Below, piece by piece: positions 663-64,000 of a stretch of 64,000 nt of DNA. Position numbers and translations under genes: made by a program. The notes beneath the pieces were generated by a model. That model had not been told where the DNA came from, did not search any database, and saw only the letters and a program-made list of their open reading frames with translations. Numbering within the stretch: the first letter of the stretch is position 1; every line of letters starts with the position of its first letter. This DNA comes from an uncultured Gammaproteobacteria bacterium (GTDB taxonomy: Bacteria; Pseudomonadota; Gammaproteobacteria; Steroidobacterales; Woeseiaceae), in NCBI GenBank assembly GCA_963701335.1, contig CAVOZR010000001.1, positions 1,259,620-1,323,619 on the forward strand, in the 5' to 3' direction.

Positions 663-685
663 ACAAGGACCGTAAGCGCGAGATC

Positions 686-3722: not shown

Positions 3723-3747
3723 ACCCGCCCTCGTGGCGGGTTTTTTG
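3723..3747 (+). terminator. Orphan rho-independent terminator (ACCCGCC-ctcgt-GGCGGGT followed by TTTTTT)
   Basis: A perfect 7-bp GC stem, a 5-nt loop and a T6 run are read directly from the sequence. No plus-strand CDS ends upstream of it. Confidence 0.5.
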
Positions 3748-3936
3748 TGGCGCCAAAAGCACGTGTTAGAAATACCTGGCCATGGCGTAATACGCGTCGA
3801 TCCGCAATTCTGGAGACAAGCCGTTCCAATGTTAAGGTTGACGGGTCGGTTAGCGGCGGTAACCGGGGCAGCGCGGACTGTGGGCGGCAAAGAACTGAGC
3901 CGCCCAATCCACGGTTTGTATTGGGGAGTTGAAGAA

Positions 3937-4440: not shown

Positions 4441-4588
4441 TCAAGTCACTTGTCGGGCATCCGACTGCGACGTTCCCGGTCGTGTCCGGGAAAAATGAAG
4501 GCGGCTCGGCCATGCCGCGTTGTCTGCTCACGCCAGATCATGGCGCGAACACGCGCCGGGACGATCGGGCGACCTCGGTCTTCGGTGC

Positions 4589-5560: not shown

Positions 5561-5605
5561 CGAATCCTACTGCGCGGAAATCGTGAGGTATACCCGGCGG
5601 CCGGG

Positions 5606-18360: not shown

Positions 18361-18993
18361 TCAGAGCGCGTCGAGCTCGCTTCTGGCGGTTGCTTTGTCG
18401 ATTTCGGCCCGCTCGAGTCGCGTCATGACGTCGACAACGATGTCGAGATGCGCCTGGTGCAATTCGCCGATGTAGGCGCTCAGGAATTCGCCGTCCGATG
18501 CGACGAACATCGTGAACGGCATGCCAATGAACTCGATGCCGGAGGACTCGGCGACGGCCATTGCGTCCTGCTCGCCGACGAGGACCGGGTAGTTGAACTC
18601 GGCCGATTCCGCGTAGTCTGAAACCGCCTCGGGAAAATCGACGGCAATGCCGATCACCTCGAATCCATTGCCGGCGTGCTGCTCCTGGAAGTCCTTCAAC
18701 AGAGGAATCTCGCGACGGCACGGTGCACACCAGGTCGCCCAGAAATTGATCAGGCGGTTCTTGCCCTGCCACTCCGAGAAACTGCGTGGCTGGCCCGACA
18801 CGTCGGACAGCGTGAATTCGGGATGCGTGACGACGTCCGGCCTGGCGGGCGCGGTTGCGGCGACGCCTGCTGCCGCGAGCGGCGCTGTCGCCTGTGCACC
18901 CTGTGACGTCACCGGGAATCGGGCCGCGTAAAACAGGGCGCCTGCCAGCATTGCCAGCAATCCGCTGGCGAAAATCAACATTACCTTGGACAC
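18361..18993 (-). CDS. TlpA/ResA-family periplasmic thiol:disulfide oxidoreductase
   Basis: It has an N-terminal TM anchor and the thioredoxin motif WATWCAPC. It lies immediately downstream of dsbD. Confidence 0.8.
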   Translation of the reverse strand: MSKVMLIFASGLLAMLAGALFYAARFPVTSQGAQATAPLAAAGVAATAPARPDVVTHPEFTLSDVSGQPRSFSEWQGKNRLINFWATWCAPCRREIPLLKDFQEQHAGNGFEVIGIAVDFPEAVSDYAESAEFNYPVLVGEQDAMAVAESSGIEFIGMPFTMFVASDGEFLSAYIGELHQAHLDIVVDVMTRLERAEIDKATARSELDAL

Positions 18994-19004
18994 TTTCTAC
19001 CTTT

Positions 19005-50574: not shown

Positions 50575-51561
50575 TTACTCAACCGTCCAGCTGCTCGGGC
50601 CCCTGATGACGTCTTCGACACGTCTTGTTCGCCGCATGGCGGTTGGATGATGCGTGTAAAACGCGTCTTCGAAGCTGGCAGCCGATCGCTTGAAGATGAC
50701 GCCGAGCGCGACCGGCATGTGCAGATCGATAAGCAATCGAGCGACAACAGCGTTGCCTTCGTCGTGAATCAACACCTCGGACGCGGACTTCGCCGCATCG
50801 ACGACTTCCAGCGACCAGGTTTCGGGATTGAAGCGGATACCCTTGCTATTGTCGTCGCCGAATAACATCGGTTCGCCGTGCCGGAGATGCAGCTGCGTGT
50901 TCGCAGCGTTCTTGCGGTCCGTGAACCCGGCGAACACGTCCTCGTTGTAGACGATGCAGTTCTGAAAAATCTCCACGAGTGACGCGCCGTCGAATGCGTA
51001 CGCGTCCCGCAGGACATGACTCATTCCGACCTTGTCGGTATCGATACCGCGTGCGAAGAACTTCGCACCGGCGCCGAGTGCGAACTGGCCGGGCGACACG
51101 GGCGTGTCAACCGAGCCGCCCGGACTGGATGGCGAGGTCGTGCCGACGCGCGAGGTCGGTGAGTACTGCCCTTTGGTGAGTCCATATATCTCGTTGTTAA
51201 ATAACAGTATTTTGAGTCCGACGTTGCGACGCAGCGCGTGCAGCATATGGTTCCCGCCGATGGACAGGCTGTCGCCATCACCGGTAACGACCCACACGTC
51301 GAGCTCGGGATTCGCAAGCTTCAAGCCGGTCGCTATCGCCGGCGCGCGTCCGTGAATGGTATGAAATCCGTAGCTCTCGATGTAGTAGGGAAAGCGCGAT
51401 GCGCAGCCGATGCCTGAGATGAACGCGGTCCTGTCCGGATCGGCTCCGACATCGGCGAGCGCCTTCGTCACGGACTTCAGGATCGCATAGTCACCGCAAC
51501 CCGGACACCAGCGGACTTCCTGCGACGCTTCGAAATCCTTCGCTGTCAGCTTTTCGGTCAT
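50575..51561 (-). CDS. korB: 2-oxoacid:ferredoxin oxidoreductase beta (TPP-binding) subunit
   Basis: WCPGCGDYAIL and GDGDSLSIGGNH TPP motifs are present. The start overlaps the alpha subunit's stop by 4 nt. Confidence 0.9.
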   Translation of the reverse strand: MTEKLTAKDFEASQEVRWCPGCGDYAILKSVTKALADVGADPDRTAFISGIGCASRFPYYIESYGFHTIHGRAPAIATGLKLANPELDVWVVTGDGDSLSIGGNHMLHALRRNVGLKILLFNNEIYGLTKGQYSPTSRVGTTSPSSPGGSVDTPVSPGQFALGAGAKFFARGIDTDKVGMSHVLRDAYAFDGASLVEIFQNCIVYNEDVFAGFTDRKNAANTQLHLRHGEPMLFGDDNSKGIRFNPETWSLEVVDAAKSASEVLIHDEGNAVVARLLIDLHMPVALGVIFKRSAASFEDAFYTHHPTAMRRTRRVEDVIRGPSSWTVE

Positions 51562-53420
51562 GACACGTCACCTCGGATCGATGCGATTTTCTCCACGAGC
51601 TCACTGATCAGGAACGGCTGCCCCGTAACCTTGGGAAACGAAATCGGCCGCAACCCCAGCTTGTCGCGCAACAGGGAGGCGAGCTGACCCGTGTTCATCT
51701 CCGGAACGAGGATCTTGTCGAAGCGCGCCAGCAGCGCCGCCAGGTTTTTCGGTAGCGGGTTCAGGTAGCGAAGGTGAACGAAGCTCGCGTCGGTTGCCCG
51801 CGTCGCCTGGTAAATGGGTCCGTACGTCGAACCCCAGCCGACGACAACGAGCTCGCCCTCGTCCGGCCCGACCTCGATTTGCTGCCCGGGAATGAAGTCG
51901 GCGACCGAAGCTACTTTCGCCTGGCGCAGATCGGTCATCGCCTGGTGGTTTGCCGGGTCATAGGAGATATGCCCGGTGTCCCTGTCTTTCTCCAGGCCGC
52001 CGATCCGGTGCAGGAGATCGGGCATGCCGGGCGAGATCCACGGCCGGCCGAGGCTTTTCGGATTGCGCCTGAAAGCCTTGCGCTGTGCATCGTCATCGCC
52101 GCTGGGGACCGCATTCGTCGATATAGGTTCTATGGCCGACATGTCCGGGATGCGCCAGGGCTCCGCGGCGTTGGACAGATAGCCGTCGGCCAGCAGGATG
52201 ACGGGCGTCATGTGCCGCAATGCAATGCGCACGGCTTCGATCGCCATGTCGAAACATTCGCCTGCCGTGGAGGCGGAGACTACCGGCAACGGCGTATCCG
52301 CGTTACGCCCGTAGACGGCCTGGTACAAGTCGGATTGCTCGGTCTTCGTCGGCAGGCCGGTCGAAGGGCCGCCGCGCTGCCAGTTGACGATAAGGAGCGG
52401 CAGCTCGGCGCTTACCGCCAGGCCCATCGCCTCGGTTTTCAGGGCGATGCCGGGCCCTGAGCTCGACGTGACGCCGATCATGCCGCCATACGATGCGCCG
52501 ATGGCGGCACAGATCGCCGCGATTTCGTCCTCGGCCTGGAAGGTGCCGACACCGAGTTCGGCGAGATGCGTCAGCCGATGCAGCAACGGCGAGGCCGGCG
52601 TGATCGGGTAGGAACAAAACATCACCGCGCGATCGGCAAGTTCGCCGGCCGCGGCGATACCGAGCGCAAGCGACTCGGCGCCCGTAATACTGCGATATTC
52701 GCCGGGCTCGAGCTTTGCCCGTGTAATCTCGATTCTCGACAGATGCGCGCTTAGCTCCGCTGTCTCGCCGTAGGCGTGTCCTGCATGCAGCGCTTCGATG
52801 TTCGCGTCCCGAAGCGTCGCATTGTTGGCTAGGCGGCGCTTGACCCAGTCTTCCACGACGATCAGTTCACGGCCGAACATCCACATCAATACGCCCAGCG
52901 CCCAGAAGTTCTTGCAGCGGCCGCTTTCGCTCTTGCTCAGCCCGAATTCCCTGACAGCCTCCAGATTCAGGCGGCTGATGTCAGCCTCGACGAGCTGGAA
53001 GTCCCGCAGCTCACCCGTCTCGCGCGGGTCGATTTCGTAACCTGCCTTGGTGAGGTTGCGTGTCGTGAACGCGTCATTGTTGACGATCACCAGCGCACCG
53101 CGTCGAAGCAGAGGCAGGCTGACCTTCAGTGCGGCCGGATTGAACGCAACCAGGACATCAGGCGCATCGCCCGGCGTCGTGATGGACTCGCTGCCCAGGT
53201 TGATCTGGTAAGCCGATACGCCGAAGGTCGTGCCGACCGGCGCCCGGATTTCCGCCGGGTAGTCGGGAAAGGTCGCGAAGTCGGCGCCCGACAGTGCGGT
53301 TGATACGGCGAACTGCGATCCCATGAGCTGGATGCCGTCGCCGGAATCTCCGGCAAGACGCACGACGATCGAATCTAAGCTCTTGCTTTTATTCACAAAA
53401 ACGGGCTTCCGGAGTAACAA
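51558..53420 (-). CDS. korA: 2-oxoacid:ferredoxin oxidoreductase alpha subunit
   Basis: It has fused gamma/alpha domains ([14 protein letters not shown]...; YPITPAS). Confidence 0.9.
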
Positions 53421-53552
53421 TTGGAGTCAGCGGGAAGGTACGCTGCTGAGTCTAGCGCAACTTGCGTGAGTGCCGTTATCCGGGGCATTACCGGCTTGAT
53501 TAGCAGCGTAACATCGCATAGCGTACCGGGTCCGGAACCTGAGGTAGCCAGC

Positions 53553-53876
53553 ATGACATTCGTGGTCACAGAAGCCTGTATCAAGTGCAAACTCACCGAT
53601 TGCGTTGAGGTTTGTCCCGTGGACTGCTTCCATGAAGGCCCGAACTTCCTCGTCATCGACCCGGACGAATGCATCGACTGCACCTTGTGTGAGCCGGAGT
53701 GTCCGGTCGAGGCGATCTATTCCGAGGACGAGCTGCCGGCAGGCCAGGAACATTTCATGGAACTCAATGCCGAGCTCTCACGGGACTGGCCAGTCATCAC
53801 CGAGATGAAAGACCCGCCGGAAGACGCGGACGAGTGGCGCGAGGTGAAGGACAAGCTTCAATACCTGGAGCGATAG
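53553..53876 (+). CDS. fdxA: 7Fe ferredoxin (FdxA type)
   Basis: [26 protein letters not shown]...[12 protein letters not shown]. Confidence 0.92.
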
Positions 53877-53892
53877 GGCTCGGCGGGAAGAA

Positions 53893-54117
53893 GCGGCCTG
53901 TCGGCCGCCGCTGTCGCTTCGCGCGCCGGGGCGCGCTCCTACATATCACGAATGAGGCGCGACACCGACGATGCGGCCTGTCGGCCGCTGCTGACGCTTC
54001 GCGCGCCGGGGCGCGCTCCTACGTTTCACGAATGAAGCGCGACACCGAAGATGCGGCCTGGTCGGCCGCCGCTGACACTTCGCGGCTGCGAGCCGCTCCT
54101 ACGTCTCGCGAATGAAG
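53893..54117. repeat. Tandem repeat, 80-bp period, about 2.8 copies, each with GC-rich palindromes; the last copy runs into the 3' end of the dehalogenase gene
   Basis: Copies start at 53893, 53973 and 54053. Copies 1 and 2 differ at about 7 of 80 positions. Each contains GCGGCC-tgtc-GGCCGC and GCGCGCC-gg-GGCGCGC hairpins. Confidence 0.9.
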
Positions 54118-54989
54118 TTCGTCAGCACCTCGGCCAGTTCCGGGCCCTTGTCCTCCTGCAGGAAGTGGCCTGCGTTCTTTATCTTCACGTGTTCGCGATT
54201 CTTCGCACCGGGCACACGTTGCTGCCACGGTATTTCGCCGCCACGGGTAATCGGATCCCTGTTGCTGAACGTCGTCAGGAACGGTTTCGTCCACGCCGCG
54301 AAGATTTCCCATGCAGCACGGTTGGCATCGCTGGCCGGATCGTCCGGCGTAACAGGCACCAGCGACGGGAACGCGCGGGCAGCTGCCTTGTAGCGTGCTG
54401 ACGGGAAGGGCGCGTCATAGGCCGCTACCACATCATCCGTAAGCTCCGTCACGGTACCCTTCTGGATGATCTTGCCAACTGGAAACCACGGGCTGTAGCG
54501 AGCAAAAGCCCGCCAGATTGTGAACGCCTTCGGCATCGGCTGATCTCCAGTCGGCAGCCCGCCGTTGCCCAGGGCGATGCGAGCGAATCGTTGCTCATTT
54601 TCGGCCGCGACTCGCAGGCCGATGAGCGAGCCCCAGTCCTGGCAAAACAGGGTGATGCCACGGAGGTCGAGCGTCTCGACAAACTGCCGCATCCACTCGA
54701 CGTGTCTCGAATAACTGTAATCGGACTTCCCGGGCAGCTTGTCCGACTTGCCGAAACCGATCAGGTCCGGCGCTATGACACGAAAGCCAGCGTCGCAGAG
54801 CGGCGGGATCATGTGCCGGTAAAGGTAAGACCAGCTGGGCTCGCCGTGGAGTAATAGCACGGGTGCTGCGTCGCGCGGTCCTTCGTCAACGTAGTGCATG
54901 CGAAGACTGTCGACATCGACATAGTTCTCCGCAAAGTCGTAATCGGGCAGATTCCTGAATCGCGCCTCCGGCGTTCGCAGTGCTTTCAT
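54099..54989 (-). CDS. Haloalkane dehalogenase-like alpha/beta hydrolase (HLD-I type)
   Basis: MHYVDEGP...LLLHGEPSWSYLYRHMIP, the nucleophile elbow FCQDWGSLIG, and a C-terminal AGHFLQED. Confidence 0.8.
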   Translation of the reverse strand: MKALRTPEARFRNLPDYDFAENYVDVDSLRMHYVDEGPRDAAPVLLLHGEPSWSYLYRHMIPPLCDAGFRVIAPDLIGFGKSDKLPGKSDYSYSRHVEWMRQFVETLDLRGITLFCQDWGSLIGLRVAAENEQRFARIALGNGGLPTGDQPMPKAFTIWRAFARYSPWFPVGKIIQKGTVTELTDDVVAAYDAPFPSARYKAAARAFPSLVPVTPDDPASDANRAAWEIFAAWTKPFLTTFSNRDPITRGGEIPWQQRVPGAKNREHVKIKNAGHFLQEDKGPELAEVLTNFIRET

Positions 54990-55052
54990 TGCTGTACTCC
55001 CGCGCCTGAATTCCGCCTATGATAGCGGCTTGACGAAAGCGGAGACTGAAGT

Positions 55053-55979
55053 TTGAAGACCAGCTGGCGAGCGAGAATGATCCGGGGGCTGTCGGCCCGG
55101 TACGTGAAAAAAATCGAACCCTCGGCAGTCGATGTACTCGAGTTGCGCCGGCGGCTGGACAGAATAAGCCGTTTCCTGAAGCGCGCGTTCGGCGTTGCCG
55201 TCGAGCCCACCACGGTCAACGGATTGCACGCGGAATGGCTGCGGCCAAAAGGCGCGCCCGGCGACAAGGCGCTGCTCTATCTTCACGGCGGCGCCTACGT
55301 GGTCGGCAGCTGCGGTACGCATCGACAAATGGTCAGTCACATTGCGCGGGCAGCCGGCATCAATGCGCTGCTGCCGGAATACCGGCTTGCACCCGAACAC
55401 CCCTTTCCGGCGGCGATTGAAGATGCCGTCGGCGTGTACCGTTTCTTGCTGGCAAACGGATTCGATTCGCAGGATATCTTCATCGCCGGAGACTCGGCCG
55501 GGGGTGGGCTGACGGTGGCTACGCTGTTGTCCTTGCGCCATGCGGGCTTGCCCATGCCGGCCGCTGCCGTATTGCTATCGCCCTTCCTCGATATCACGGC
55601 GAGCGGGGAATCGGCAACGACACGCGCCGGGCAGGACCCCTGGTTCGACGCAAAGGATGTTTCGGTGGTCGCCGACAAGTATTGTGGCGCAGGTGCCGAC
55701 CTGGAGAACCCGTTGATATCCCCGGTATTCGCGAATGTCGCGGGCCTGCCGCCGACCCTGATACAGGTCGGCAATGACGAGATTCTGCTCAGCGACTCGA
55801 CGCGCTTCGCCGACAAGATGAAAGCCGCAGGCCTCGACATCGAGATCGAGATTTGGCCGGAGATGTGGCACGTGTTTCAGTTGTTCGTCGGCAAGATGCC
55901 GGAAAGTCGCCGCGCTATCGACCGTATCGGGGTCTACCTGAAGGCACGCATGCGGCGCGGCGAGGCTTCAGAAACCTGA
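55053..55979 (+). CDS. Family IV (hormone-sensitive-lipase-like) esterase/lipase
   Basis: The oxyanion motif is LHGGAY (HGG[G/A]), and the nucleophile motif is GDSAGGG. Confidence 0.85.
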   Translation: MKTSWRARMIRGLSARYVKKIEPSAVDVLELRRRLDRISRFLKRAFGVAVEPTTVNGLHAEWLRPKGAPGDKALLYLHGGAYVVGSCGTHRQMVSHIARAAGINALLPEYRLAPEHPFPAAIEDAVGVYRFLLANGFDSQDIFIAGDSAGGGLTVATLLSLRHAGLPMPAAAVLLSPFLDITASGESATTRAGQDPWFDAKDVSVVADKYCGAGADLENPLISPVFANVAGLPPTLIQVGNDEILLSDSTRFADKMKAAGLDIEIEIWPEMWHVFQLFVGKMPESRRAIDRIGVYLKARMRRGEASET

Positions 55980-57335
55980 CTGTTTCTGCGAGTCATCGTA
56001 CATCTTTGTGAGGAACGAACGGATCGCCGGTTCGGCTTCGTCCTTGCTCATCAGTTTCTGCTTTTCGAGAACGGATGCCATATCCCTGATCGATCGCTTG
56101 CCGTCAATCAGGGACATCATGAATGAGTAAACCTGCGTCGTCATCGCCTGGGTGCGGAAGGACGACGACAACGGCACCGGTTCCTTGCCCGTCACCAGCC
56201 AGTCCGGCAAAGCTTTGTGGCGTTCCGGTTTACTGACCTCACGTTCCTTGTAAGCCGAGAATGAAAACACCTTTTCCTGGCGCCCATGCCGGCTTGCGGG
56301 GGAACACATGTAAGGGATGGTCCTCTGCGAAACGTATGGGTCCGAGAAACCGCACTCGGCGACGATCGCCTTGGTTTCCTCGGGACTGTAGCGGCGCGAT
56401 CGCAGCGGGCTCGAGAACGCCAGCGAGCCGAAATTGACCCAGCGCCCATTGTCCACGAGGAGTCTGTTGATGCGCGCGGCGAACAAGGGCAGGTCCTCGC
56501 TGATGATATCGATCAGCCATGGCGTGACGACGGTATCGAAACTGCTGTCTGAAAACGGCGCGCGCAATGCATCGCCAAGAACCAGTTGAAAGCGCGCATC
56601 CACAGCCTCGGGTGCGATCAGCGGCCGCAGAATGGCATCGTCCTCGAGCGATTTCGGCGCGATGGGAAACTCGTACAACTTGAGCTTGTCTCCGCGCGTA
56701 ACGGCCTGGGCCACGAGCATCAGCAGTGGATTGAAGTCCATCGCGACAGTGGTCGTGCAATTCAGGCTGCGATGAATGTCGTAAGCAAGGCGGCCGGCCC
56801 CGGCCCCCAGCACCAATACCCTGCCAAGCTCCGCATGATCGTGGAGCACCGAGCGGATCTGTCTGAGCGAAGCACTGTTCTCTTCGTCGCCCCAGGACCA
56901 GTCGCGATGAATATTCGCGTAGTAGGTGTTGAGCCCCTGGTCGACCGGCAGTCGCGTGCGCAGCGCCAGGTAAGTCTCGTAGCTGCCGTAGTTTGCCTGC
57001 ATGTCGATGGGTTTGAGCAACTTGCCAAGTCTGCGACGATGATCCTCGAGCGCCTTCTTGTAGCGCTCGACCCGTCGCCGCGTCAGCGAGTGCAGGTCCT
57101 CTGATTTTAGCTCCCGTTCGAGTCCGGCGATCTCGTGACCGGTCTGCTGCAGCGCGAATGCCAGGCGGCCTCGCCATTCGCCCAGCGCCGCCTGCGGTTC
57201 CGCAAACATCCACGGAATACCGTTTATCGAGGGGAACGGCACATTACAGGCTTTGCAATGAAACGTGCCACCGTCCTCCTCGAGTGGCGACTTGTCACAG
57301 CGCGGACAAGCGAGAAGGGCGGCGAGCTCGGTCAT
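55968..57335 (-). CDS. N2227-like class I SAM-dependent methyltransferase with N-terminal Trm112-type zinc ribbon and C-terminal PqqD-like domain
   Basis: CPRCDKSPL...FHCKACN at the N-terminus, VLVLGAGAGRLAYDI...FDTVVTPWLIDI...GRWVNFGSL in the core, and a C-terminal LIDGKRSIRDMASVLEK...AEPAIRSFLTKM. Confidence 0.65.
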   Translation of the reverse strand: MTELAALLACPRCDKSPLEEDGGTFHCKACNVPFPSINGIPWMFAEPQAALGEWRGRLAFALQQTGHEIAGLERELKSEDLHSLTRRRVERYKKALEDHRRRLGKLLKPIDMQANYGSYETYLALRTRLPVDQGLNTYYANIHRDWSWGDEENSASLRQIRSVLHDHAELGRVLVLGAGAGRLAYDIHRSLNCTTTVAMDFNPLLMLVAQAVTRGDKLKLYEFPIAPKSLEDDAILRPLIAPEAVDARFQLVLGDALRAPFSDSSFDTVVTPWLIDIISEDLPLFAARINRLLVDNGRWVNFGSLAFSSPLRSRRYSPEETKAIVAECGFSDPYVSQRTIPYMCSPASRHGRQEKVFSFSAYKEREVSKPERHKALPDWLVTGKEPVPLSSSFRTQAMTTQVYSFMMSLIDGKRSIRDMASVLEKQKLMSKDEAEPAIRSFLTKMYDDSQKQSGF

Positions 57336-57351
57336 GGCGGGATTATGCACC

Positions 57352-57387
57352 AAAAAAACAGCCGGTCGAGGGGAAGCCGACCGGCTG
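57352..57387 (-). terminator. Strong rho-independent terminator after the three-gene exported-protein operon
   Basis: On the minus strand it reads CAGCCGGTCG-gcttcccct-CGACCGGCTG followed by T7, a 10-bp perfect stem. Confidence 0.8.
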
Positions 57388-57434
57388 TGTAGATGCCAGG
57401 TTGTCCAAGTCAGCCCGGCATTGCGGAAAATCGC

Positions 57435-59039
57435 CTAGACAGGGCTGGATATTATTCCGTTCACGATCGGTGTAAATGCCGTGAATGTGTCCAGACCGGA
57501 ACCGAGACCGTGCCAGCCCGGGCCATACAGCGAATCGAAGGCCGCCGTTTCGCCATGCAGCGCCATGTAATTCAATATCACGCTGTTGACGAGAAGATTG
57601 ACGTTGTTGGCCATCGGTGTTGCGGCACGCATCACGGACCCGCCAGCATCCATGGCGCCTATTTGCTGATGTCGCATCTGTTCGTCCAGCGTACCGCCCA
57701 TCAGCGTCGGGCGACGCGTCGGGTTATAAACCAGGAAGAACGCAGCGGCCGTCGACGAGTTATCACTCACCCATTCGCCTTTGCCGCGGCCCTCGACAGA
57801 GTTGTCAATCGCGCCGTTCGACGACAGTGAGCCGTCACTGAATACGTACATCATCAGCGGCTTGCCGAGGCGTGCCGCATACTCGAGGCAGGCGCCCATG
57901 CAACGTCCGGCGCGGAAATCCTTGACCTCGCCTTCGGCGCGCGCACCGCCATGGTAGTCGTAACCGCCCATTTCCACGGTGCCCGCGCCGGCGAAACCGT
58001 TCAGGACCAGCTTCATTACGGAGGCGGTCTTGCGGAATTCACTGCCATCGCGTCCGCCCGCGTTGAACTCGGCGGTGGTGAAGATGCCGGTACCGTCATC
58101 GGCAACGATGTTCGGGTCCTGCCCCGGGTCGATCGGTGTACCGCCGAATCGATCGGCGATGTCTGCTGCCTTCAGGTAGCCGCAACGAACGGCCTGCTTG
58201 ATGGCCGCGTCGGCTGCGACCTGCGTATTGATGTTGTTAACCTTGGCATCGCTGAGACGATAGATCGACTCCATCACCGCGGTTGCATCGTCCTTGCTCA
58301 GGATGCCGACGAGATCGCCGGTATCGACGAGATTGACGACGTCGCTGGGCCGATCAACCTTGGTCGGGCGAAGCTCGGGGTCGTAAAGCATGGCCGGCAG
58401 CATGGAGTTGCCGCCAGAGTCCGTATTCTCCGACCCGGTCAGCGTCAGTATGGAGCCCTTGGCACCAGCCTGGGCAATACCGTAGGTCGGATTGTGCGGG
58501 TTGTTGCCGGTGTCGTTGTCCGAGCGCGCCGGAATGACAGCGCCGTTGGTATTCGCGGCGGTAGTCGGGCTGATTACAGACATGATGCCGCGACGGAACG
58601 CGCTGTCCAGGTGGAAACCCAGTCCCAGGTCGAAATTCGCGTACGACTCGCCTGAAATGGGATCATTGAGGCTCGGGATCATATCGCCAGGCAGTCCCAT
58701 CTTCTCGTAGCCCTGGGTACTGACGAAGTCCTGCTGGCCGCCTTCCTTGCCGATCAGCACGTTCGACCCGGCGATGTTGGCACCGCCTGCCAGGTCAAAA
58801 CAGATGAACGGGATCTTGCCGGCACCATCGGTGATGTTGCAGGGTGTTGCGAGCATGCTGTCCAGGTCGCCCGACAATGCAAATGCCGGATTGGCGAGCA
58901 GGCCTGCGGCGCCACCTACGGTGTAGGCAGCACCCGTCATGAATCCCTGCGCTACGAACTGACGGCGCGTAACAGGACGCGGATGATCGCCATGAAGCTG
59001 CGGCGCATCCCAATGCCGCTTATTTCGTCGTTTACTCAT
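57435..59039 (-). CDS. Tat-signal exported protein, DUF1501/DUF1552-like (sulfatase/alkaline-phosphatase-superfamily-like)
   Basis: The twin-arginine leader is VTRRQFVAQGFMTGAA...AFA. FICFDLAGGAN and MGGYDYHG resemble the GGWDTH-type motif of DUF1501. Confidence 0.55.
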   Translation of the reverse strand: MSKRRNKRHWDAPQLHGDHPRPVTRRQFVAQGFMTGAAYTVGGAAGLLANPAFALSGDLDSMLATPCNITDGAGKIPFICFDLAGGANIAGSNVLIGKEGGQQDFVSTQGYEKMGLPGDMIPSLNDPISGESYANFDLGLGFHLDSAFRRGIMSVISPTTAANTNGAVIPARSDNDTGNNPHNPTYGIAQAGAKGSILTLTGSENTDSGGNSMLPAMLYDPELRPTKVDRPSDVVNLVDTGDLVGILSKDDATAVMESIYRLSDAKVNNINTQVAADAAIKQAVRCGYLKAADIADRFGGTPIDPGQDPNIVADDGTGIFTTAEFNAGGRDGSEFRKTASVMKLVLNGFAGAGTVEMGGYDYHGGARAEGEVKDFRAGRCMGACLEYAARLGKPLMMYVFSDGSLSSNGAIDNSVEGRGKGEWVSDNSSTAAAFFLVYNPTRRPTLMGGTLDEQMRHQQIGAMDAGGSVMRAATPMANNVNLLVNSVILNYMALHGETAAFDSLYGPGWHGLGSGLDTFTAFTPIVNGIISSPV

Positions 59040-59066
59040 CTCGATTATTCCTCATTAGTCCTGTTA

Positions 59067-61676
59067 TTACTGAACCAGCGTGGCTGCACTGCCCAACGTG
59101 GCGGCACAGACACCCTTGGCAATTGCTCGTGTGTCGCTCGGACCAGCCAGCAGCCGGTCGATCAGGTTGTCCGGGCGACCGCCAGCTGCCTGGAAGGACG
59201 CCAGTTCCTGATACACGACGCCGTAGCTCGGCTGGCTCGCAATTTGCGGGCCGGACGGCGTATTGCCGACAGCGCGAGCAATCATCGGGTCGACGAAGTT
59301 GTCGCGATTGGCAACGCTGAAAGCCTGGCTTGCGGCCTGGTTGAAGTCGAAGCCCGGCCACATTGCCGCTGCGTCGGGATTCGGGCTCGCGTTCGAGCCG
59401 ATTGCCGCGTCGCAGTACTGGATGGCCAGCTGCGCGATCGCCACCTGGTGCGACGACAGGAACGTGTTCACGTCCTCCACCGCAGGCAGCGACTGTCGAA
59501 GTTCCTGGTAGGTGTCGTCGACAGGGAATACGCCGGAGGGGCGCTCGTAGCCGGTGCGGCTCACGCCCGTGATTGCCGAGAATGTGGCGTCGATCTCATC
59601 GAAGGTACGCACACCGATCTGCGGTGCATCGGGAAGATCTGTTGGCGTGATGATCAGCATCGGATCGTCAGGACGGTTATAGGAGAACCCGGCGAGCCTG
59701 TCGAAAGTCAGGAAGAACTCGTCGTCCTGAGGTCCTTTCTCGAGCGGAATCACGGCACCAAGCGCGGACAGCGGCTGGCCGAGTTCCTCGAAAAGCGATG
59801 CACTCAGGGTTTCATTCAGGGTCGCATACGTCTGACCGTGATCTGCCTCCTGTCCGTTCATCGCGATGCGAACGCCCTCGATCGGAATACCTTCCGGCGA
59901 TGAGCCATCGAGCGTGATGAAATGCGGTTTGTCAAACAGGTACGCATAGCTGTCGAACTGCTGTACTTCGTAGAGTATGTACGACGACTGCTCCGCGGCC
60001 TGCAGCCGTTCCGAGATATCGAACAGCAGGTAGAACCTCTCGCCAACACCGGCGTCGAAATTCTGCTGTATCTGCTCCTGGGTCAGCGAACGCCGATGGA
60101 TTGCGGCCAGGCGGAAGGTGCCTTCAAAGACGCCATCGCCCGAGGCCTCGTTACCCAGAACCAGCGCAAACGTGTCCTGCCAGTCGACAAAGGTGCCGCC
60201 GGGAATCGGGTCAGCGTTTGATACAAGTTCGCCGTTGACGTAAATGCGGCGCCCGTTGATTGGATCGTAGGTTGCGACGACGTGCTGCAGGGTTGCCTGC
60301 AATACTTCGTCCGCGTCCGGAGTCGACAGCGCGGGATCACCGTTCAGGCTAACGAGCGGGTCGCCGTTGGCATCCTGCGCGTTGCTGCGCAGCAGGAAGT
60401 CGTAATTATAAAGCGTCTGCTGAAGCGTGAAATTCCGCGTGTTGGGTCCGGCCGAATAGCTGACGATCCGCGCCATCTCCTGCGTGACGTTGGCCGGGAT
60501 TACCCAGGCCTCGATGGAAAATTCGCCGGATTCCTGCAGTACATCGGCGAGCTTGGCACTGGCCGTGGTGGAGCCCTGTGCCTTGCCCGGGCCCTGTGCC
60601 GCGTTTGTACCGATCGTGATGCCCCAGCCACCGAACCAGCTGACGTCACCCGAGAAGTTCAGGTCGATAGCCGGATCGACACCGCTGGTGTCAAACGCCG
60701 TCAGTCCGCTGCCGGTCTTGAACTCCCAGAGCGCAATCTGTGAATCTTCGTAGCGGTTACCGCCGGACGCCAGCGTGCCGTCGACAAGGCGAACCGCCTT
60801 ACTGTAGACAAGGTTGGGGTCAACGGTGGTTGCCGTAATGCCATTGGCGAACGCCGTAATGGCGGCCAGCATCTCATCGGCAGAGGACGCACAGTTGCCG
60901 TTCCAGCAGTTGTGCGACTCGCCGAGCGGAACCGGGCTTACCTTGCCGACAAAGCGCGAGTCGGCCGGCGTGTCGAGATTGATCTTCGATTTGGCCGCGT
61001 CGTAGGCGCTGGCGATGTCCGGGTCACCGAAATACGGCTGCTGCGCGTTGGGCGACTGCGAGCTGTGGCAGTCGGAGCAATAACGCTCGAGTATCGGCGT
61101 ATGGATCAGCTGCTGAAACGCGGCCGGATCGTCCGGGAAGTTCTTGCTCGAACTCGGGTCGCTGGACGCGGGAGGTGTCAGTACGATCTGGCGACCGCCA
61201 CCGGCGGCCGAACCGACCCAGTTTTCGATCCAGGTTGTCATGATGCTGCCGCAGACGCCCGAGTCAGCGACCCAGCAGTTGTGACCGCCGGAGACCTTTT
61301 CAACCAGGCGCGACAGCGCCGGTTGCTGCGTGTCCGTTACCGTCACCGCCTCGTCGTAGGCCATGTTGACGTCGTCGTTGCGCACGAAAGTCGGTACCTG
61401 GCCAACGGTTTCGTTGTGACAGGAGCCGCAACGGTCCGTCGTCTTTGCGTTGGACCAGAACTCCTGCTGGAACTTGAGTACGTCGCCGTCCCGAGCAACA
61501 GGGCCCGTATATACCGCGTCGTTGTTGTTCCCGGGATTCTGCGACAAGGGGTTGTCAGTAGTCTGTGCGCCGCCACCGCAGGCTGCGAGAACCACGCTCG
61601 ACAGCAGTGCCACCGTCGTTGCGCGCAACGAGCGGTAAGCGGGGGCCTTGGTAGCAATTCCAATTGCGTTAGTCAT
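59067..61676 (-). CDS. Lipoprotein with two CxxCH heme-c motifs and a LamG (concanavalin-like) domain
   Basis: There is a lipobox (VVLAACGG), plus CGSCH and CSDCH motifs. The LamG-like core reads FSIEAWV...HVVATYDPINGRRIYVNGE...FRLAAIHRRSLTQEQIQQNF. The start was set at the Met preceded by GGGAGA, 13 nt after the upstream stop. Confidence 0.6.
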   Translation of the reverse strand: MTNAIGIATKAPAYRSLRATTVALLSSVVLAACGGGAQTTDNPLSQNPGNNNDAVYTGPVARDGDVLKFQQEFWSNAKTTDRCGSCHNETVGQVPTFVRNDDVNMAYDEAVTVTDTQQPALSRLVEKVSGGHNCWVADSGVCGSIMTTWIENWVGSAAGGGRQIVLTPPASSDPSSSKNFPDDPAAFQQLIHTPILERYCSDCHSSQSPNAQQPYFGDPDIASAYDAAKSKINLDTPADSRFVGKVSPVPLGESHNCWNGNCASSADEMLAAITAFANGITATTVDPNLVYSKAVRLVDGTLASGGNRYEDSQIALWEFKTGSGLTAFDTSGVDPAIDLNFSGDVSWFGGWGITIGTNAAQGPGKAQGSTTASAKLADVLQESGEFSIEAWVIPANVTQEMARIVSYSAGPNTRNFTLQQTLYNYDFLLRSNAQDANGDPLVSLNGDPALSTPDADEVLQATLQHVVATYDPINGRRIYVNGELVSNADPIPGGTFVDWQDTFALVLGNEASGDGVFEGTFRLAAIHRRSLTQEQIQQNFDAGVGERFYLLFDISERLQAAEQSSYILYEVQQFDSYAYLFDKPHFITLDGSSPEGIPIEGVRIAMNGQEADHGQTYATLNETLSASLFEELGQPLSALGAVIPLEKGPQDDEFFLTFDRLAGFSYNRPDDPMLIITPTDLPDAPQIGVRTFDEIDATFSAITGVSRTGYERPSGVFPVDDTYQELRQSLPAVEDVNTFLSSHQVAIAQLAIQYCDAAIGSNASPNPDAAAMWPGFDFNQAASQAFSVANRDNFVDPMIARAVGNTPSGPQIASQPSYGVVYQELASFQAAGGRPDNLIDRLLAGPSDTRAIAKGVCAATLGSAATLVQ

Positions 61677-61689
61677 TATCGTAGTCTCC

Positions 61690-62934
61690 CTACTGGCCCA
61701 TGCAGTGGACAGCAGCGTCCGCAAATACTTGCTTCATCTGGTAGCCCGTCCCGCGGAACGTTGAAATGATCTCGTCGACCTTGGCGCCGTCGCCCAGGTT
61801 CGGGTCAGCCAGGTCCGGATCGCGAAGGCAGACCGCGCGAAACGCCTTCTTCACCTGGCAGGCGGCGAACGCGTAGCTGTTGCCCAGTTCTTCACCGAGT
61901 GACTTGGCGCCCGCGCCGCTGCCTGGCAATGCCGGGTCGAAACCGAGGTACGAGTTTTGGCCCTTTCGCCAATAGTTGTCCCACTGATCGTCGGGCGTGC
62001 GGAACCCCTGCGGGAAGTTCAGATCGTTATTGAAGTACTTGGGCTGGACGTTGCCGGGGGTGTACTGGAGCGTGCCGGCGGCTTCGTCATAATTGTAGTA
62101 GGCGAATGCCTGGGCCATCGGGTCCATGCCCGTGTGGCAGCCGATGCAGTTGTTCAGGAACAGCCGGCTGTCGCCGCCCGGGCTGCGGCTGACGTCCTGA
62201 CGAATTCGGTCAGGCGGCAGGTTCGGGTCGTGCATCTGCTCCATGTCATTGCAGAGATGATTCATCAGTGTGAAACGGAACATCGCGCGGTTGGTCCCGG
62301 CGATGAAGAATGCCTCCGATGCCGCTCGCGACGTCATTACGCCCGCCGTCGCCGAGGAAGGGATGTTCTGAACGCTCGACTGCGCGACCATCTGCAGCTC
62401 ATCGCGCAGGCTGACATTGTTCGCCTCGAGTTGCTCATAGTGAGCGTTGTTGTTTGCAGAAGGCGCGGCAGCCACAACGCCGGATCGACCCACATAGGTA
62501 ATGTCATCGGAGAGCAGCGTATTGAAAGGGCGGTCGTCCCTTATCATTCCGATAACCGTCGCAACGTAATCGTTCAGCGGGACAAAAATCGACTGATCGC
62601 GATTCGTCCAGGGCGCTGCGAAGTTCTTCAGCGTCACGTTATAGAAATTGACGTTGTCCATGGCAATATAGGCTGCCGTTGTGGCATTGCCCGGCAGCGC
62701 CGGATTGATGGCATCTTCCATCTGCTGCAGCACTGCCTCGGTCGGCGGTACACCGGCGAGCCGGTCATGCAGGCGTTTGGCCTGCTCCCGGTAACCCGCA
62801 TGTGCCGGAGAAATCAGAACGGCAGCAAGCAATGCCGCAAGCGCGAGGCGCGGCAGCGTTCCGATTTGGACTTCCCTAAAGTTCTTCAGCATGTCGTTTT
62901 TCATATCGTTTCTGCTCATCACTCGAATGATCAA
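61690..62934 (-). CDS. Exported CxxCH protein resembling the DUF1588/DUF1585 end of planctomycete-type cytochrome-like proteins
   Basis: There is a signal peptide (LAALLAAVLISPAHA). The motif CIGCHTGMDPMAQAFAYYNYD resembles C..CH..DP.G..F. The start is ambiguous; Met15 at 62892 is possible. Confidence 0.5.
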   Translation of the reverse strand: MIIRVMSRNDMKNDMLKNFREVQIGTLPRLALAALLAAVLISPAHAGYREQAKRLHDRLAGVPPTEAVLQQMEDAINPALPGNATTAAYIAMDNVNFYNVTLKNFAAPWTNRDQSIFVPLNDYVATVIGMIRDDRPFNTLLSDDITYVGRSGVVAAAPSANNNAHYEQLEANNVSLRDELQMVAQSSVQNIPSSATAGVMTSRAASEAFFIAGTNRAMFRFTLMNHLCNDMEQMHDPNLPPDRIRQDVSRSPGGDSRLFLNNCIGCHTGMDPMAQAFAYYNYDEAAGTLQYTPGNVQPKYFNNDLNFPQGFRTPDDQWDNYWRKGQNSYLGFDPALPGSGAGAKSLGEELGNSYAFAACQVKKAFRAVCLRDPDLADPNLGDGAKVDEIISTFRGTGYQMKQVFADAAVHCMGQ

Positions 62935-63763
62935 ACAATGTGCTTCTCATATGTGCCCAGATGAAACCGCACATCACGCACCCAAAGTTAACGGACTGTT
63001 CAGAATTTGCTGCGTCATGATTGACGCGTGCCAAATCTGTTGCTCCTTGTTGCTCCGCATTATGCGGCGGACTCCTGTCCGCCAGGTCGGTTGCTCAATT
63101 TGGCAAATGCACTCTGCCTGACTTTGAAAACATTTGCCGTGAATACAATCACGATTCCGAACGTCCTCAAGGTTTGCGTAAACAACCCACCTGTGATCTC
63201 TAAAGCAAGTGCTGTGCCACTCCTGGTGAGGTCGCCGATATACCTCAATAAAAATAATAAAAACAATGAGTTATTGAGTTTCCTTTGCGGCTCCTCCGAC
63301 GCGTCATATGTCAAGTCATTGTCGGCGCTTTAGCACAACCATAATCACCTGAACGGCTAAGCTACTGATTGTGAAGGACAGTGCAACTGTCGCTGAAGGG
63401 AGACAGGGCCGTCGCCTCATGACAATAAGAAACAACAAACGCCAATGACATAAAGTTCATGCGGTTTCTCAATCGTTGCAGGAAAATCACATTTTTTACG
63501 CGCGTCGAATCGTGACGAAATGGAACCGTATGCCACGTCGCGCCGTGTGCGTGAACAGGTAACGCGTCGAAAAGACGTTTGACTTTGTTCGGTGTCGTGC
63601 TTTTGAGACATTACATCGAGCCCGATGCGTCTCATATAATTGCCTGCGAAACGCTCCGAACAAACAGAGCCAAGATTGCAGGTTAATCGTAGTTTGTGAC
63701 TGCGTTAACGGTACGGCGACACCGTCGCGACGTACCCTGCCACAATGACCCGAGGTGAAGGCG

Positions 63764-64000
63764 ATGATTAAGCTACCACGACAGTCCGTGAAGGGAAATA
63801 CCGGTAAAGCGACCAGGATGGTTGCATTGTCGATGGCATGCATGCTGATTGCAGCGTGCAGCAAAGGCGACGGTGTACAGATTGGCACCGGACAGGATGC
63901 AGATCCTGTCGTTATCGATTTTCCTATCGCCTATATCAAGTCGCCCATTCCGGTGGATGACAACGGAGAATTCCAGCAGCAGGATCTCAGGGAGCAGATC
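63764..64000 (+). CDS. Lipoprotein, 3'-partial (runs off the window)
   Basis: A GAGGTGAAGG RBS precedes the ATG at 63764. There is a lipobox (MLIAACS), and the frame stays open to the window end. It is not in the ORF track because no stop codon is reached. Confidence 0.5.
   Translation, partial: MIKLPRQSVKGNTGKATRMVALSMACMLIAACSKGDGVQIGTGQDADPVVIDFPIAYIKSPIPVDDNGEFQQQDLREQI

Follow-up and report, generated by a model that had tools for sequence, protein, structure and literature searches.

The question raised by this locus is what kind of system is encoded by three neighbouring genes for exported proteins, two of which carry haem-c attachment motifs. The window, that is, the whole 64-kb stretch of DNA that was analysed, matched a Woeseiaceae MAG, in keeping with the gammaproteobacterial setting proposed in a first-pass annotation. 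Three minus-strand ORFs, here called g1, g2 and g3, occupy positions 57435-62904 (Table 1). With the ATG starts that we chose, the g1 stop is 13 nt from the g2 ATG and the g2 stop 27 nt from the g3 ATG, the same gaps as had been given before. Each of the three proteins has thousands of homologues at 70-100% identity, and these ORFs are therefore not chance; the genes are real and tightly linked. The three export routes assigned earlier were also found in the products: a Sec signal in g1 (a hydrophobic core and then AHA|G, as read from sequence), a lipobox in g2 (LAAC) and a twin-arginine signal in g3 (TRRQFV).

Table 1. Features of the trio, its 3' neighbour and its upstream region (window coordinates).
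Feature	Position	Strand	Basis or remarks
g1 ORF	61690..62934 from TTG; best start ATG at 62904, giving 61690..62904, 404 aa	-	ORF and start codons
g2 ORF	59067..61724 from TTG; real start ATG at 61676, giving 59067..61676, 869 aa	-	GGGAGA before ATG
g3 ORF	57435..59039, 534 aa	-	ORF
Intrinsic terminator-like hairpin, interval between g3 and methyltransferase gene	57351..57388 (stem-loop 57388..57358)	-	12-bp stem (8 G-C), 7-nt loop, T7
CARME-like SAM methyltransferase gene, 455 aa	55968..57335	-	Cytoplasmic product, N-terminal Trm112-like zinc ribbon
Sigma-54 promoter element TGGCACAGCACTTGCT (-24/-12)	63204..63219	-	Points at g1; starts 314 nt upstream of g1 ATG
CRP-type palindrome GTGA-N6-TCAC	63139..63152	-	In predicted transcribed leader; probable regulator-binding site
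Two conserved TGT-N12-ACA dyads	63320-63337 and 63388-63405	-	Conserved blocks in alignment of 38 loci
Third TGT-N12-ACA copy	63593-63610	-	Sequence
5' end of divergent operon: HZS-alpha-like lipoprotein gene (925 aa)	63764..64000, runs off window	+	Beta-propeller, HZS_alpha middle domain, two CxxCH

The trio had been described as a terminator-bounded three-gene operon. Trio, spacing and terminator all stand, but the unit is not self-contained: it is one half of a conserved divergent cluster. The hairpin and its T7 tract are present as described, although the stem has 12 bp and not 10 bp. A methyltransferase gene lies closely downstream of g3 in many genomes. It was found 3' of g3 in Woeseiaceae and Pseudomonadales-type MAGs and again near the trio in a distant locus (L087), and is missing beside the cluster in Microbulbifer and Alteromonadaceae. 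In another locus (L005) the gap between g3 and the methyltransferase gene is 32 nt, too short for a terminator.

The g3 protein is encoded in at least 581 species-level genomes, and the sequences compared indicate that the cluster is conserved in hundreds of marine Gammaproteobacteria. Gene order within the trio was invariant in 24/24 diverse loci clustered, and consistent over 80 genome loci where sequence suffices. Among loci with enough sequence, the three genes occurred together and in order in Woeseiaceae, Microbulbifer, Alteromonas, Paraglaciecola, Kangiellaceae, Sedimenticola, Ectothiorhodospiraceae and Chromatiaceae. The first-pass annotation had made co-occurrence across genomes and conservation of the CxxCH motifs its tests, and both came out in its favour. 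Co-occurrence of the trio remained strong even at 33-34% g3 identity. In g1, g2 and the HZS-like protein the CxxCH motifs did not vary among 57-70 orthologues, the most divergent of which share about 40% identity, save for one g2 motif (69/70). Two distant low-GC lineages keep the trio but have g2 as two genes: one for its C-terminal domain immediately precedes g3, and one for its haem modules immediately follows. No HZS-like, barrel or DUF3570 genes were found within 10 kb of the distant trios, and coupling to the divergent operon may therefore be specific to Gammaproteobacteria. Our best reading, to which we would give an even chance of being right, is that these genes encode a redox and catalytic complex of the outer envelope that has g1, g2 and g3 as its conserved core.

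Upstream of g1 lies a spacer (62905..63763) that is non-coding and poorer in GC than the operon (0.486 vs 0.606), as had been claimed, but which measures 859 nt rather than 830 bp. By its motifs, this spacer is a predicted sigma-54 control region. The element TGGCACAGCACTTGCT is the sole match in the 64-kb window, where 0.04 would be expected, and the strict sigma-54 motif, wherever it was found (42/65 loci), pointed at g1 and belonged to a locus of Woeseiaceae type. Of 38 non-redundant sigma-54 loci, 37 carry a CRP-type palindrome 33-72 nt past the -12 element, on its downstream side. The two conserved dyads, which are located ~100-190 nt upstream of the sigma-54 element with an AT-rich tract between, are candidate enhancer-binding-protein sites. 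No Sigma54_activat gene was present among the called neighbours or among ten large ORFs of the window, and the activator may be encoded elsewhere.

The trio had also been likened to planctomycete-type pairs of PSCyt/PSD proteins with DUF1501 or DUF1552 proteins. This link holds for g1, and fails for g2, in which profile search detected no PSCyt1, PSCyt2, PSD1 or any other PSCyt/PSD domain, and for g3, which by profile search is neither DUF1501 nor DUF1552. The haem motif of g1 (CIGCH, residues 253-257) keeps its CxxCH in 65/65 orthologues. PSD2/DUF1585 (PF07624) matched 26/35 g1 orthologues at E <= 0.01; the best E was 7.8e-6, some matches exceeded the gathering score, and close homologues scored 24.7-26.7 bits against this model, the cut-off being 25.8. 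The window's own g1 gave no PSD2 match even at E <= 10 in the Pfam profile search, and had no significant match in Pfam or NCBIfam. Its match to PSCyt3/DUF1588 (PF07627) was weak (E 0.17, 12.6 bits, residues 261-281 on model positions 69-89 of 98); PSCyt3 was matched at E <= 0.01 in 2/35 orthologues. The domain order is canonical, with the PSCyt3-like haem region N-terminal to the PSD2-like C-terminus. Profile matches of this kind suggest that g1 is a divergent PSCyt3/PSD2 (DUF1588/DUF1585) protein. Pfam detected no PSD3, PSD5 or PSD4 (DUF1587/1595/1592) domains in g1, g2 or their orthologues. The structure model of g1 was poor, including around the CxxCH.

g2 is predicted to be an outer-membrane-type lipoprotein, the lipobox Cys being kept in at least 97% of 70 orthologues. 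It comprises a pair of haem modules, a LamG domain and a middle region, and ends in a C-terminal domain of ~180 aa, which in the distant lineages is encoded by a separate gene adjoining g3. The motifs CGSCH and CSDCH, which together with that of g1 had been reported from the start, are kept in 69/70 and 70/70 orthologues, and each is followed by H-N-C-W...C, a conserved His and Cys pair. The two tandem modules of ~115 aa are an internal duplication (hhalign, 99.4% probability, E 2e-21), and weak class-I cytochrome c matches were found in 10/31 g2-type proteins. The LamG domain named in the first-pass annotation was recovered as a Laminin_G_3 match (E 3.5e-19, 69.9 bits vs a gathering score of 27.6), and was present in 26/26 full-length g2 orthologues.

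The most conserved protein of the set is g3, at least 61% identical across orders. The RR of its signal is invariant in 70/70 relatives down to 29% identity, and the signal reads T/S-R-R-x-F across relatives. No Pfam family matched in 70 diverse relatives and the window's g3 had no significant Pfam or NCBIfam match, so g3 appears to represent a family for which neither collection holds a model. DUF1552/HXXSHH (PF07586) was rejected, with 0/70 diverse relatives matching at E <= 0.01 or at E <= 10, as was DUF1501 (PF07394) by profile search (0/70 even at E <= 10). DUF1501 belongs, we presume, to the alkaline-phosphatase clan, and its motifs of the GG-x-D, D-x-H and S-E-F-G types would follow one another as they do in g3. 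The name GspF (type II secretion) on some homologue records is a mis-annotation, no T2SSF or other Pfam domain being present in g3 and 70 relatives.

The AlphaFold2 model of g3 has a pLDDT of 85.7. When it was compared with the PDB by Foldseek, all 50 matches listed belonged to the alkaline-phosphatase superfamily (sulfatases, alkaline phosphatases, MCR-1, LtaS, iPGM, ENPP6, PorX), with a best E of 3.6e-3, none <= 1e-3, and TM about 0.1-0.2. The g3 core is thus probably an alkaline-phosphatase-superfamily fold, on a weak signal. D176, D361-Y-H363, D402-G403, D426 and Q459 are invariant; among 70 relatives, position 82 is D in 64 and E in 6, S146 is kept in 67/70, and D361, H363, D402 and D426 in 70/70 each. 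In this confident model D82, S146, D361, H363, D402 and D426 sit at the ends of strands 78-82, 350-356 and 395-400 or just before helix 147-153, and D176 likewise falls at a strand end or helix start. An invariant Gly occupies what we take to be the His position of the superfamily's SDHG-type motif, and g3 may for this reason bind rather than catalyse. Two further observations run against a redox complex: sites of the alkaline-phosphatase type belong to hydrolases or transferases rather than to redox enzymes, which leaves the haems beside g3 unexplained; and the fold assignment is weak, with no profile match to any enzyme family.

The fold of g3 could also be read in terms of nutrient scavenging, with g3 as a phospho- or sulfo-ester hydrolase or transferase of the periplasm or surface, the LamG domain of g2 capturing a polymer or organic substrate, and the haems being sensory, structural or protective. 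The alkaline-phosphatase-like core of the model, with Ser146 at a helix start and the Asp/His set, suggests such an enzyme. LamG is a carbohydrate-binding fold, the hosts include the polysaccharide degraders Microbulbifer, Alteromonas and Paraglaciecola, and sigma-54 with a CRP-type site is typical of nutrient-limitation control. However, the five CxxCH are invariant across orders, and the cluster has links to ApbE and to an electron relay of flavin and thiol centres. Moreover, there was no Pho box in 65 upstream regions, the g3 relatives showed no profile similarity to sulfatase, phosphatase or phosphodiesterase families even at E <= 10, and one canonical metal-ligand position is the invariant Gly. 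We consider this explanation unlikely.

In the window's organism, the divergent operon facing the trio goes on to encode an SH3/beta-barrel protein, an OMP_myx_plus barrel, DUF4266 and DUF3570, with Pfam matches to PF12094 and PF14086 (DUF3570/DUF4266); the DUF4266 and DUF3570 genes form its end. The HZS-like gene and both outer-membrane barrel genes were present in 24/24 diverse gammaproteobacterial loci clustered, and where the flank reaches far enough DUF4266 was found in 44 loci and DUF3570 in 17. In other lineages the cluster is flanked by thioredoxin and ApbE genes; 7 loci of these lineages have ApbE next to it, and in Microbulbifer the ApbE gene is directly 3' of g3 on the same strand. 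The [S/T]GA[S/T] flavinylation motif is absent from g1, g2, g3 and the HZS-like protein. Coupling to flavin is opposed by the DUF3570 motifs here, which are SSAS or TSAS and then TTAS, STAS or ATAS and so differ from the published [S/T]GA[S/T]. It is also opposed by the lack of ApbE, both in the window and, in the organism it comes from, over some 10 kb around g1 and g3.

The 925-aa lipoprotein at the head of this operon keeps both CxxCH in 57/57 orthologues and matched PF18582 (HZS_alpha) at E 8e-16. It aligned with hydrazine synthase alpha (PDB 5c2v_A) in three collinear stretches: one over the propeller, one over the middle domain, which contains the first CxxCH, and one at the C-terminal end, where the second haem region lies. 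In contrast to that enzyme it is lipid-anchored; it was rejected as a hydrazine synthase equivalog, scoring 64.5 bits against an NCBIfam cut-off of 800, and no HZS beta/gamma partner genes were found in the neighbourhood. The likeness to hydrazine synthase alpha is, moreover, the neighbouring gene's and not the trio's. Small nitrogen species are the substrates of many such haem enzymes. The dihaem beta-propeller might itself be the catalytic centre, for example in periplasmic turnover of NO, hydroxylamine or other small N- or O-species, or in defence, with g1, g2 and g3 as accessory carriers, anchors or maturation factors. Its collinear alignment and its presence in all 24 diverse loci are consistent with this, which we nevertheless regard as quite unlikely. 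Since distant lineages keep the trio with no HZS-like gene nearby, the trio has a function of its own, and the conservation of g3 argues against a merely accessory role. In addition, the score is far below the cut-off, beta/gamma partners are lacking, and none of the HZS-alpha homologues outside the anammox bacteria has been assigned a function (PMC12758564).

That these are just neighbouring envelope proteins, or that CxxCH marks disulfide or metal sites, is very improbable, for although g1 and g3 of the window lack significant family matches and the g1 model is poor around its motif, the invariant gene order, the short gaps, the retention of the trio after gene fission or fusion in distant lineages, the full conservation of C-x-x-C-H including its His, and the weak cytochrome c matches of g2-type proteins all count against it.

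In the preferred reading of a redox and catalytic complex, the trio would form the core of an extracytoplasmic assembly at the inner face of the outer membrane. g2 would be its lipid-anchored scaffold, with two c-type haem modules relaying electrons, a LamG beta-sandwich holding a ligand (glycan, protein or surface) and a C-terminal domain docking g3, and g1 would be a soluble monohaem partner of PSCyt3/PSD2 type. g3 would fold and take up a metal or cofactor in the cytoplasm before Tat export, and would act as the catalytic subunit through the conserved Asp/Ser/Asp-x-His/Asp site of its alkaline-phosphatase-like core. The trio would be wired to the dihaem beta-propeller lipoprotein, the two small outer-membrane barrels and the DUF4266/DUF3570 relay of the divergent operon, giving a chain of five haems with flavin and thiol centres that may serve one or two catalytic sites. 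In Woeseiaceae, transcription would need sigma-54 and an enhancer-binding protein and would be modulated at the CRP-type site.

A bolder proposal, which we think rather unlikely to hold in full, is that a roughly eight- to eleven-gene cluster encodes a new outer-membrane-anchored redox enzyme complex. It would comprise DUF3570 as a flavinylated barrel, the DUF4266 CXC lipoprotein, the HZS-alpha-like dihaem propeller, g1 and g2 as haem proteins of PSCyt type, and g3 as a Tat-exported metalloenzyme of a new family built on an alkaline-phosphatase scaffold, and would catalyse a new extracytoplasmic transformation. If so, the complex would transform nitrogen, phosphorus, sulfur or metal species, or a polymer, would be widespread in dominant marine-sediment bacteria, and by homology would reveal the role of the planctomycete PSCyt/PSD and DUF1501/DUF1552 modules. 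The role of the cluster is now testable in culturable species.

Among described systems, the DUF4266 and DUF3570 genes of the divergent operon are shared with the ApbE/DUF3570/thioredoxin-like/DUF4266 flavinylation system. This is an extracytosolic electron relay of DUF4266 (CXC) and DUF3570 (FMN), fed by DsbD, thioredoxin and ApbE, in which DUF3570 was experimentally shown to be an ApbE substrate in a DsbD/thioredoxin-linked system, and whose end function is not known (Meheust et al. 2021, PMC8238504). In the text consulted, that description contains no haem proteins, g3 or HZS-like partner (PMC8238504).

For the trio itself, the best reading is a new variant of the uncharacterised PSCyt/PSD and Tat-enzyme modules, for which we found no function assignment in the literature, as the first-pass annotation had held. 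Modules of DUF1501 with PSCyt1/PSCyt2/PSD1 (plus Laminin_G_3) occur in Planctomycetes and Verrucomicrobia and were read as membrane-associated cytochromes with a Tat-exported cofactor enzyme (Kamneva et al. 2012, PMC3542564). The trio follows that logic, with a cytochrome-motif protein, often with Laminin_G_3, beside a twin-arginine putative cofactor enzyme (PMC3542564), the twin-arginine signal being common to DUF1501 proteins and g3. However, g3 relatives lack PF07394, g2 lacks PSCyt1, PSCyt2 and PSD1, and the haem modules of g2 represent a tandem duplication peculiar to its family.

The pairs of PSCyt3/PSD (DUF1585-DUF1595) and DUF1552 proteins, whose function is not known (PMC5615132), have like g1 an exported CxxCH protein with a PSCyt3-like region and then PSD2/DUF1585, and likewise a gene for a Tat-signal protein downstream of it. 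In contrast to these planctomycete-type pairs, g1 has only about 400 aa and no detectable PSD3, PSD4 or PSD5, the gene for the dihaem LamG lipoprotein separates the other two, the host genomes are gammaproteobacterial, the HZS-alpha-like/barrel/DUF3570 operon accompanies the trio, and the 70 g3 relatives lack PF07586. g3 carries H143-x-x-S146, which we take, as a lead only, to resemble the first half of the eponymous HXXSHH motif of DUF1552.

Inspection of the ORFs and start codons confirmed the three tightly packed minus-strand genes of the first-pass annotation: g1, g2 and g3 lie head to tail, with gaps of 13 and 27 nt when the chosen starts are used. The export signals attributed to the three products could all be read in their sequences, as a Sec-type signal with an AHA|G end at the N-terminus of g1, a LAAC lipobox in g2 and a twin-arginine signal, TRRQFV, in g3. 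The heme-c attachment motifs were also as described (CIGCH in g1, CGSCH and CSDCH in g2), and the LamG domain of g2 was recovered by profile search (Pfam Laminin_G_3, E 3.5e-19). The region preceding g1 is indeed non-coding, and lower in GC than the operon. The sole correction to what had been observed concerned the terminator, which has the T7 tail reported for it but a stem of 12 bp, not 10. A scan for sigma-70 promoters was uninformative (3 sites vs 2.3 expected). In the public gene call for a protein identical to g3 (P0001, 501 aa), translation begins at Met34 of g3, and the conserved Tat signal is lost.

Features of the operon and its flanks, in window coordinates
Feature	Position	Strand	Details
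CARME-like SAM methyltransferase	55968..57335	-	N-terminal Trm112-like zinc ribbon (CxxC...CxxC)
Hairpin 3' of g3	57388..57358	-	stem of 12 pairs, T7 tail
g3, Tat-exported protein	57435..59039	-	534 aa; ORF inspection
g2, dihaem LamG lipoprotein	59067..61724 listed	-	ATG start 61676, 869 aa; GGGAGA ribosome-binding site precedes start
g1, monohaem CxxCH protein	61690..62934 listed	-	likely ATG start 62904, 404 aa; ORF inspection
Spacer upstream of g1	62905..63763		859 nt; GC 0.486 vs 0.606 in operon
CRP-type palindrome	63139..63152	-	in leader of g1
Divergent gene 1, HZS-like lipoprotein		+	925 aa; beta-propeller, HZS_alpha middle domain (8e-16), two CxxCH
Divergent gene 2, SH3 plus beta-barrel protein		+	
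Divergent gene 3, OMP_myx_plus barrel lipoprotein		+	4e-49
Divergent genes 4 and 5, DUF4266 then DUF3570		+	

The g1 protein of the window gave no significant Pfam match. Its CxxCH region weakly matched PSCyt3/DUF1588 (E 0.17), its close homologues matched PSD2/DUF1585 near the gathering score, and profile searches of 35 g1 orthologues detected PSD2 in 26 and PSCyt3 in two. These matches identify g1 as a predicted short, divergent counterpart of the PSCyt3-PSD2 segment with which planctomycete-type proteins end, and bear out for g1 the echo of such PSCyt/PSD proteins that had been noted. The structure model of g1 was poor (pLDDT 59.9) because the alignment was restricted to close homologues, and Foldseek gave no meaningful result with it. 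Besides LamG, profile searches of g2 returned just generic cytochrome-motif models. The N-terminus of g2 contains a haem module of ~115 aa in tandem duplicate (hhalign 99.4%, E 2e-21); in each copy a conserved H-N-C-W...C comes after the CxxCH. Shared ancestry of these modules with g1 and with the C-terminus of the HZS-like lipoprotein, which resembles hydrazine synthase alpha, was rejected, as the hhalign similarity was limited to CxxCH. No relevant PDB entry matched g1, g2 or g3 by sequence, or the profiles A2 and A4.

The earlier description of g3 as DUF1501/1552-like was not supported. There was no Pfam or NCBIfam match for g3, nor did any of 70 full-length relatives, as distant as 29% identity, match Pfam even at E <= 10, which by profile search places g3 outside both DUF1501 and DUF1552. 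A g3 profile matched only the Tat signals of NosZ in the PDB. The name "general secretion pathway protein GspF", carried by g3 homologues in several NCBI records, was discarded since these proteins have no secretion-system domain. The AlphaFold2 model of g3 was confident (pLDDT 85.7, pTM 0.83). All 50 matches listed in a Foldseek comparison of this model with the PDB belonged to the alkaline-phosphatase superfamily, none of them at E <= 1e-3. Residues invariant in g3 (D176, D361-Y-H363, D402-G403, D426 and Q459) or nearly so (D82 and S146) are located at strand ends and helix starts of the model, like the metal ligands and nucleophile of the superfamily. From the model, g3 is probably a very divergent member of this fold class, to which DUF1501 and DUF1552 also belong. 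A DUF1501-like gene, sought for direct comparison, was absent from all the flanks examined, and g3 had no tblastn match among plasmids.

One further residue of g3, His19 (window 58983-58985, minus strand), is located in the n-region of the Tat signal, six residues ahead of the twin arginine. It is kept in 67 of the 70 relatives, down to 29% identity, in the pattern H-x-x-P-x-T-R-R-x-F. Since such conservation is unusual in an n-region expected to be cleaved, this suggests that g3 is recognised by a chaperone or a modifying enzyme of its own.

For each of the three proteins, databases contain thousands of homologues that are 70-100% identical, mostly unnamed or hypothetical and chiefly from Woeseiaceae and other Gammaproteobacteria; the window itself matched a Woeseiaceae MAG at 100%. 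Cultured hosts include Microbulbifer harenosus, M. variabilis, M. epialgicus, Lentisalinibacter salinarum and Alteromonas nitratireducens. g3 defines a large protein family without a Pfam or NCBIfam model: an exhaustive search returned 1,280 clusters at 50% identity (297 at E <= 1e-30), and with each species represented by a single genome, at least 581 genomes were found to encode g3. A full cluster was also present on a contig labelled as a Klebsiella pneumoniae MAG (L066, CAMDVY010000162.1), which looks mis-binned or mislabelled because the cluster otherwise occurs elsewhere.

The first-pass annotation had proposed conservation of the CxxCH motifs and co-occurrence of the three genes as tests of its reading, and both were borne out. 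The five CxxCH motifs (one in g1, two each in g2 and the HZS-like protein) were invariant in 57-70 orthologues, to ~40% identity, and the trio persisted in low-GC contigs where g3 was 33-34% identical. In two distant low-GC contigs the gene order was a g1-like gene, a small lipoprotein, a g3-like gene and a haem-module protein. The small lipoprotein matched g2 residues about 684-868 only, and the haem-module protein, 3' of the g3-like gene, matched the N-terminal part of g2. Because g2 is split in this way around the g3-like gene, it is predicted to be a fusion, whose C-terminal domain consistently neighbours g3. These distant loci had no HZS-like, barrel or DUF3570 genes, which by gene content marks the trio as the predicted core and the second operon as a gammaproteobacterial association. 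One of these contigs, L087, has a second paralogous set (570-5752) consisting of a fragment like the C-terminal part of g2, a g3-like gene of 542 aa, and a multihaem protein of 1,182 aa that combines three CxxCH motifs with a Tll0287-like domain.

Gene tables of same-organism contigs place the start of the divergent operon at window position 63764. Among 80 genome loci, every locus with enough flank had OMP, SH3-OMP and HZS-like genes facing g1, g2 and g3 in this order, and these were the sole six families present in all 24 diverse clustered loci. The three-gene operon described earlier is real, but the unit extends into the divergent operon. Beyond the OMP side lay DUF4266 (44 loci) and then DUF3570, with a TlpA-like thioredoxin in between in Microbulbifer, Alteromonadaceae, Kangiellaceae, Sedimenticola and Ectothiorhodospiraceae. 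In Microbulbifer, ApbE was directly 3' of g3 on the same strand; in the window's organism no ApbE adjoined the cluster. DUF3570 has been experimentally shown to be an ApbE substrate, and ApbE, DUF3570, thioredoxin and DUF4266 have been described as a DsbD-linked extracytosolic electron relay, whose purpose is left open there (PMC8238504). The [S/T]GA[S/T] flavinylation motif was absent from g1, g2, g3 and the HZS-like and barrel proteins. The N-termini of the cluster DUF3570 proteins (L001 3-794 and other loci) read YYVDM(V/I)(S/T)SAS(I/V)DV..(T/S/A)TAS, not the published [S/T]GA[S/T]. A DsbD gene (19005-21251, minus strand) adjoins a TlpA-like thioredoxin ORF (18364-18996, minus strand) in the window; published work describes DsbD as supplying electrons to DUF3570 systems (PMC8238504). 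This pair may be housekeeping genes, as it is located ~36 kb from the trio operon.

The picture of a terminator-bounded operon was found to be lineage-specific: in Woeseiaceae and Pseudomonadales-type MAGs the methyltransferase gene is 3' of g3, at one locus (L005) after a gap of just 32 nt, too short for a terminator. A methyltransferase homologue (E 3.5e-33) was also beside the trio in one of the distant contigs, L087; in Microbulbifer and Alteromonadaceae the cluster has no such neighbour. The C-terminus of the enzyme gave a faint PqqD-like match (E 0.084), and its possible modification of g3 before export was considered. The downstream genes at 50575-55979 (two alpha/beta hydrolases, a ferredoxin and a two-subunit 2-oxoacid:ferredoxin oxidoreductase of the POR/TPP type in gene tables) are conserved among the Woeseiaceae loci examined, with no evident link to the trio operon.

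Among the closest described systems are PSCyt3/PSD proteins with DUF1552, and modules of DUF1501 with PSCyt1/2/PSD1 (and Laminin_G_3). The function of PSCyt/PSD proteins and their Tat-exported partners was left open in 2012, when membrane-associated cytochromes and a Tat-exported cofactor enzyme were proposed (Kamneva et al., PMC3542564), and again in 2017, when nothing was known of PSCyt gene functions (He et al., PMC5615132); later literature, as far as searched, has assigned none to modules of this type. These modules share with the present cluster an overall logic and the PSD2/PSCyt3 domains, which are those of g1. However, the cluster differs in its gene arrangement, in having a Tat protein in a family of its own, in the new duplicated haem module of g2, and in the joining of the trio to DUF3570 and an HZS-alpha-like protein. 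The DUF3570 flavinylation relay was described in 2021 with no functional assignment (PMC8238504), and non-anammox hydrazine synthase alpha homologues were noted in 2025, also without one (PMC12758564). These three sets of proteins, each widespread and so far unexplained, meet in one conserved cluster. It overturns nothing, and allows them to be tested together as a single system in bacteria that can be cultured. The hosts include abundant marine-sediment Woeseiaceae and the cultured genera Microbulbifer, Alteromonas and Lentisalinibacter, in which experiments may be feasible.

The sequences show three exported proteins that are always encoded together, with invariant haem motifs, and a g3 that keeps an invariant Tat motif and a set of polar residues; the trio is physically linked to genes for haem, flavin and thiol proteins. 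We propose a working model to which we give about an even chance as a whole. g2, in which the residue after the lipid-modified Cys is Gly, would anchor a complex to the outer membrane, relay electrons via its two haems, hold a ligand with LamG and dock g3 with its C-terminal domain. g1 would be a soluble haem partner, and catalysis would fall to g3, loaded while still cytoplasmic. In Gammaproteobacteria, the relay of DsbD, thioredoxin, DUF4266 and FMN-DUF3570, together with the HZS-like dihaem protein, would exchange electrons with this module. The main rival, a system for hydrolytic scavenging whose haems form no electron chain, is unlikely. Slightly less probable again is that catalysis resides in the HZS-like protein, which could be aligned to hydrazine synthase alpha (5c2v_A) over three collinear segments, scored far under the equivalog cut-off and had no beta or gamma partner. 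The null hypothesis seems very improbable.

The spacer upstream of g1 reads as a control region and contains the sole match in the window to the sigma-54 element TGGCAC-N5-TTGCW (63204..63219, minus strand; expected 0.04), directed toward g1. The strict motif was found, always g1-oriented, in 42 of 65 upstream regions, comprising all Woeseiaceae-type loci including Lentisalinibacter, while other gammaproteobacterial lineages had shorter spacers without it. Upstream of the element are conserved TGT-N12-ACA dyads and an AT-rich tract, a classic layout of candidate activator sites and a predicted DNA bend. In 37 of 38 non-redundant sigma-54 loci the -12 element is followed, at a distance of 33-72 nt, by a CRP-type palindrome, GTGA-N6-TCAC. 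Because its arms are invariant without compensatory change (its spacer is variable), a protein-binding site fits better than an RNA hairpin as its predicted role. Fur, FNR, Pho and NsrR boxes were sought in the 65 upstream regions and none was found, and an Rfam scan of 57200-64000 gave no family. Small ORFs in the spacer were rejected; since their matches were fragmentary and in several frames, conservation is at the DNA level and not coding. The putative 288-nt 5' leader (62905-63192, minus strand) had a predicted folding energy of -99.3 kcal/mol (z -3.48, 0/200 shuffles as good), and the leaders of the relatives listed measured 96-433 nt.
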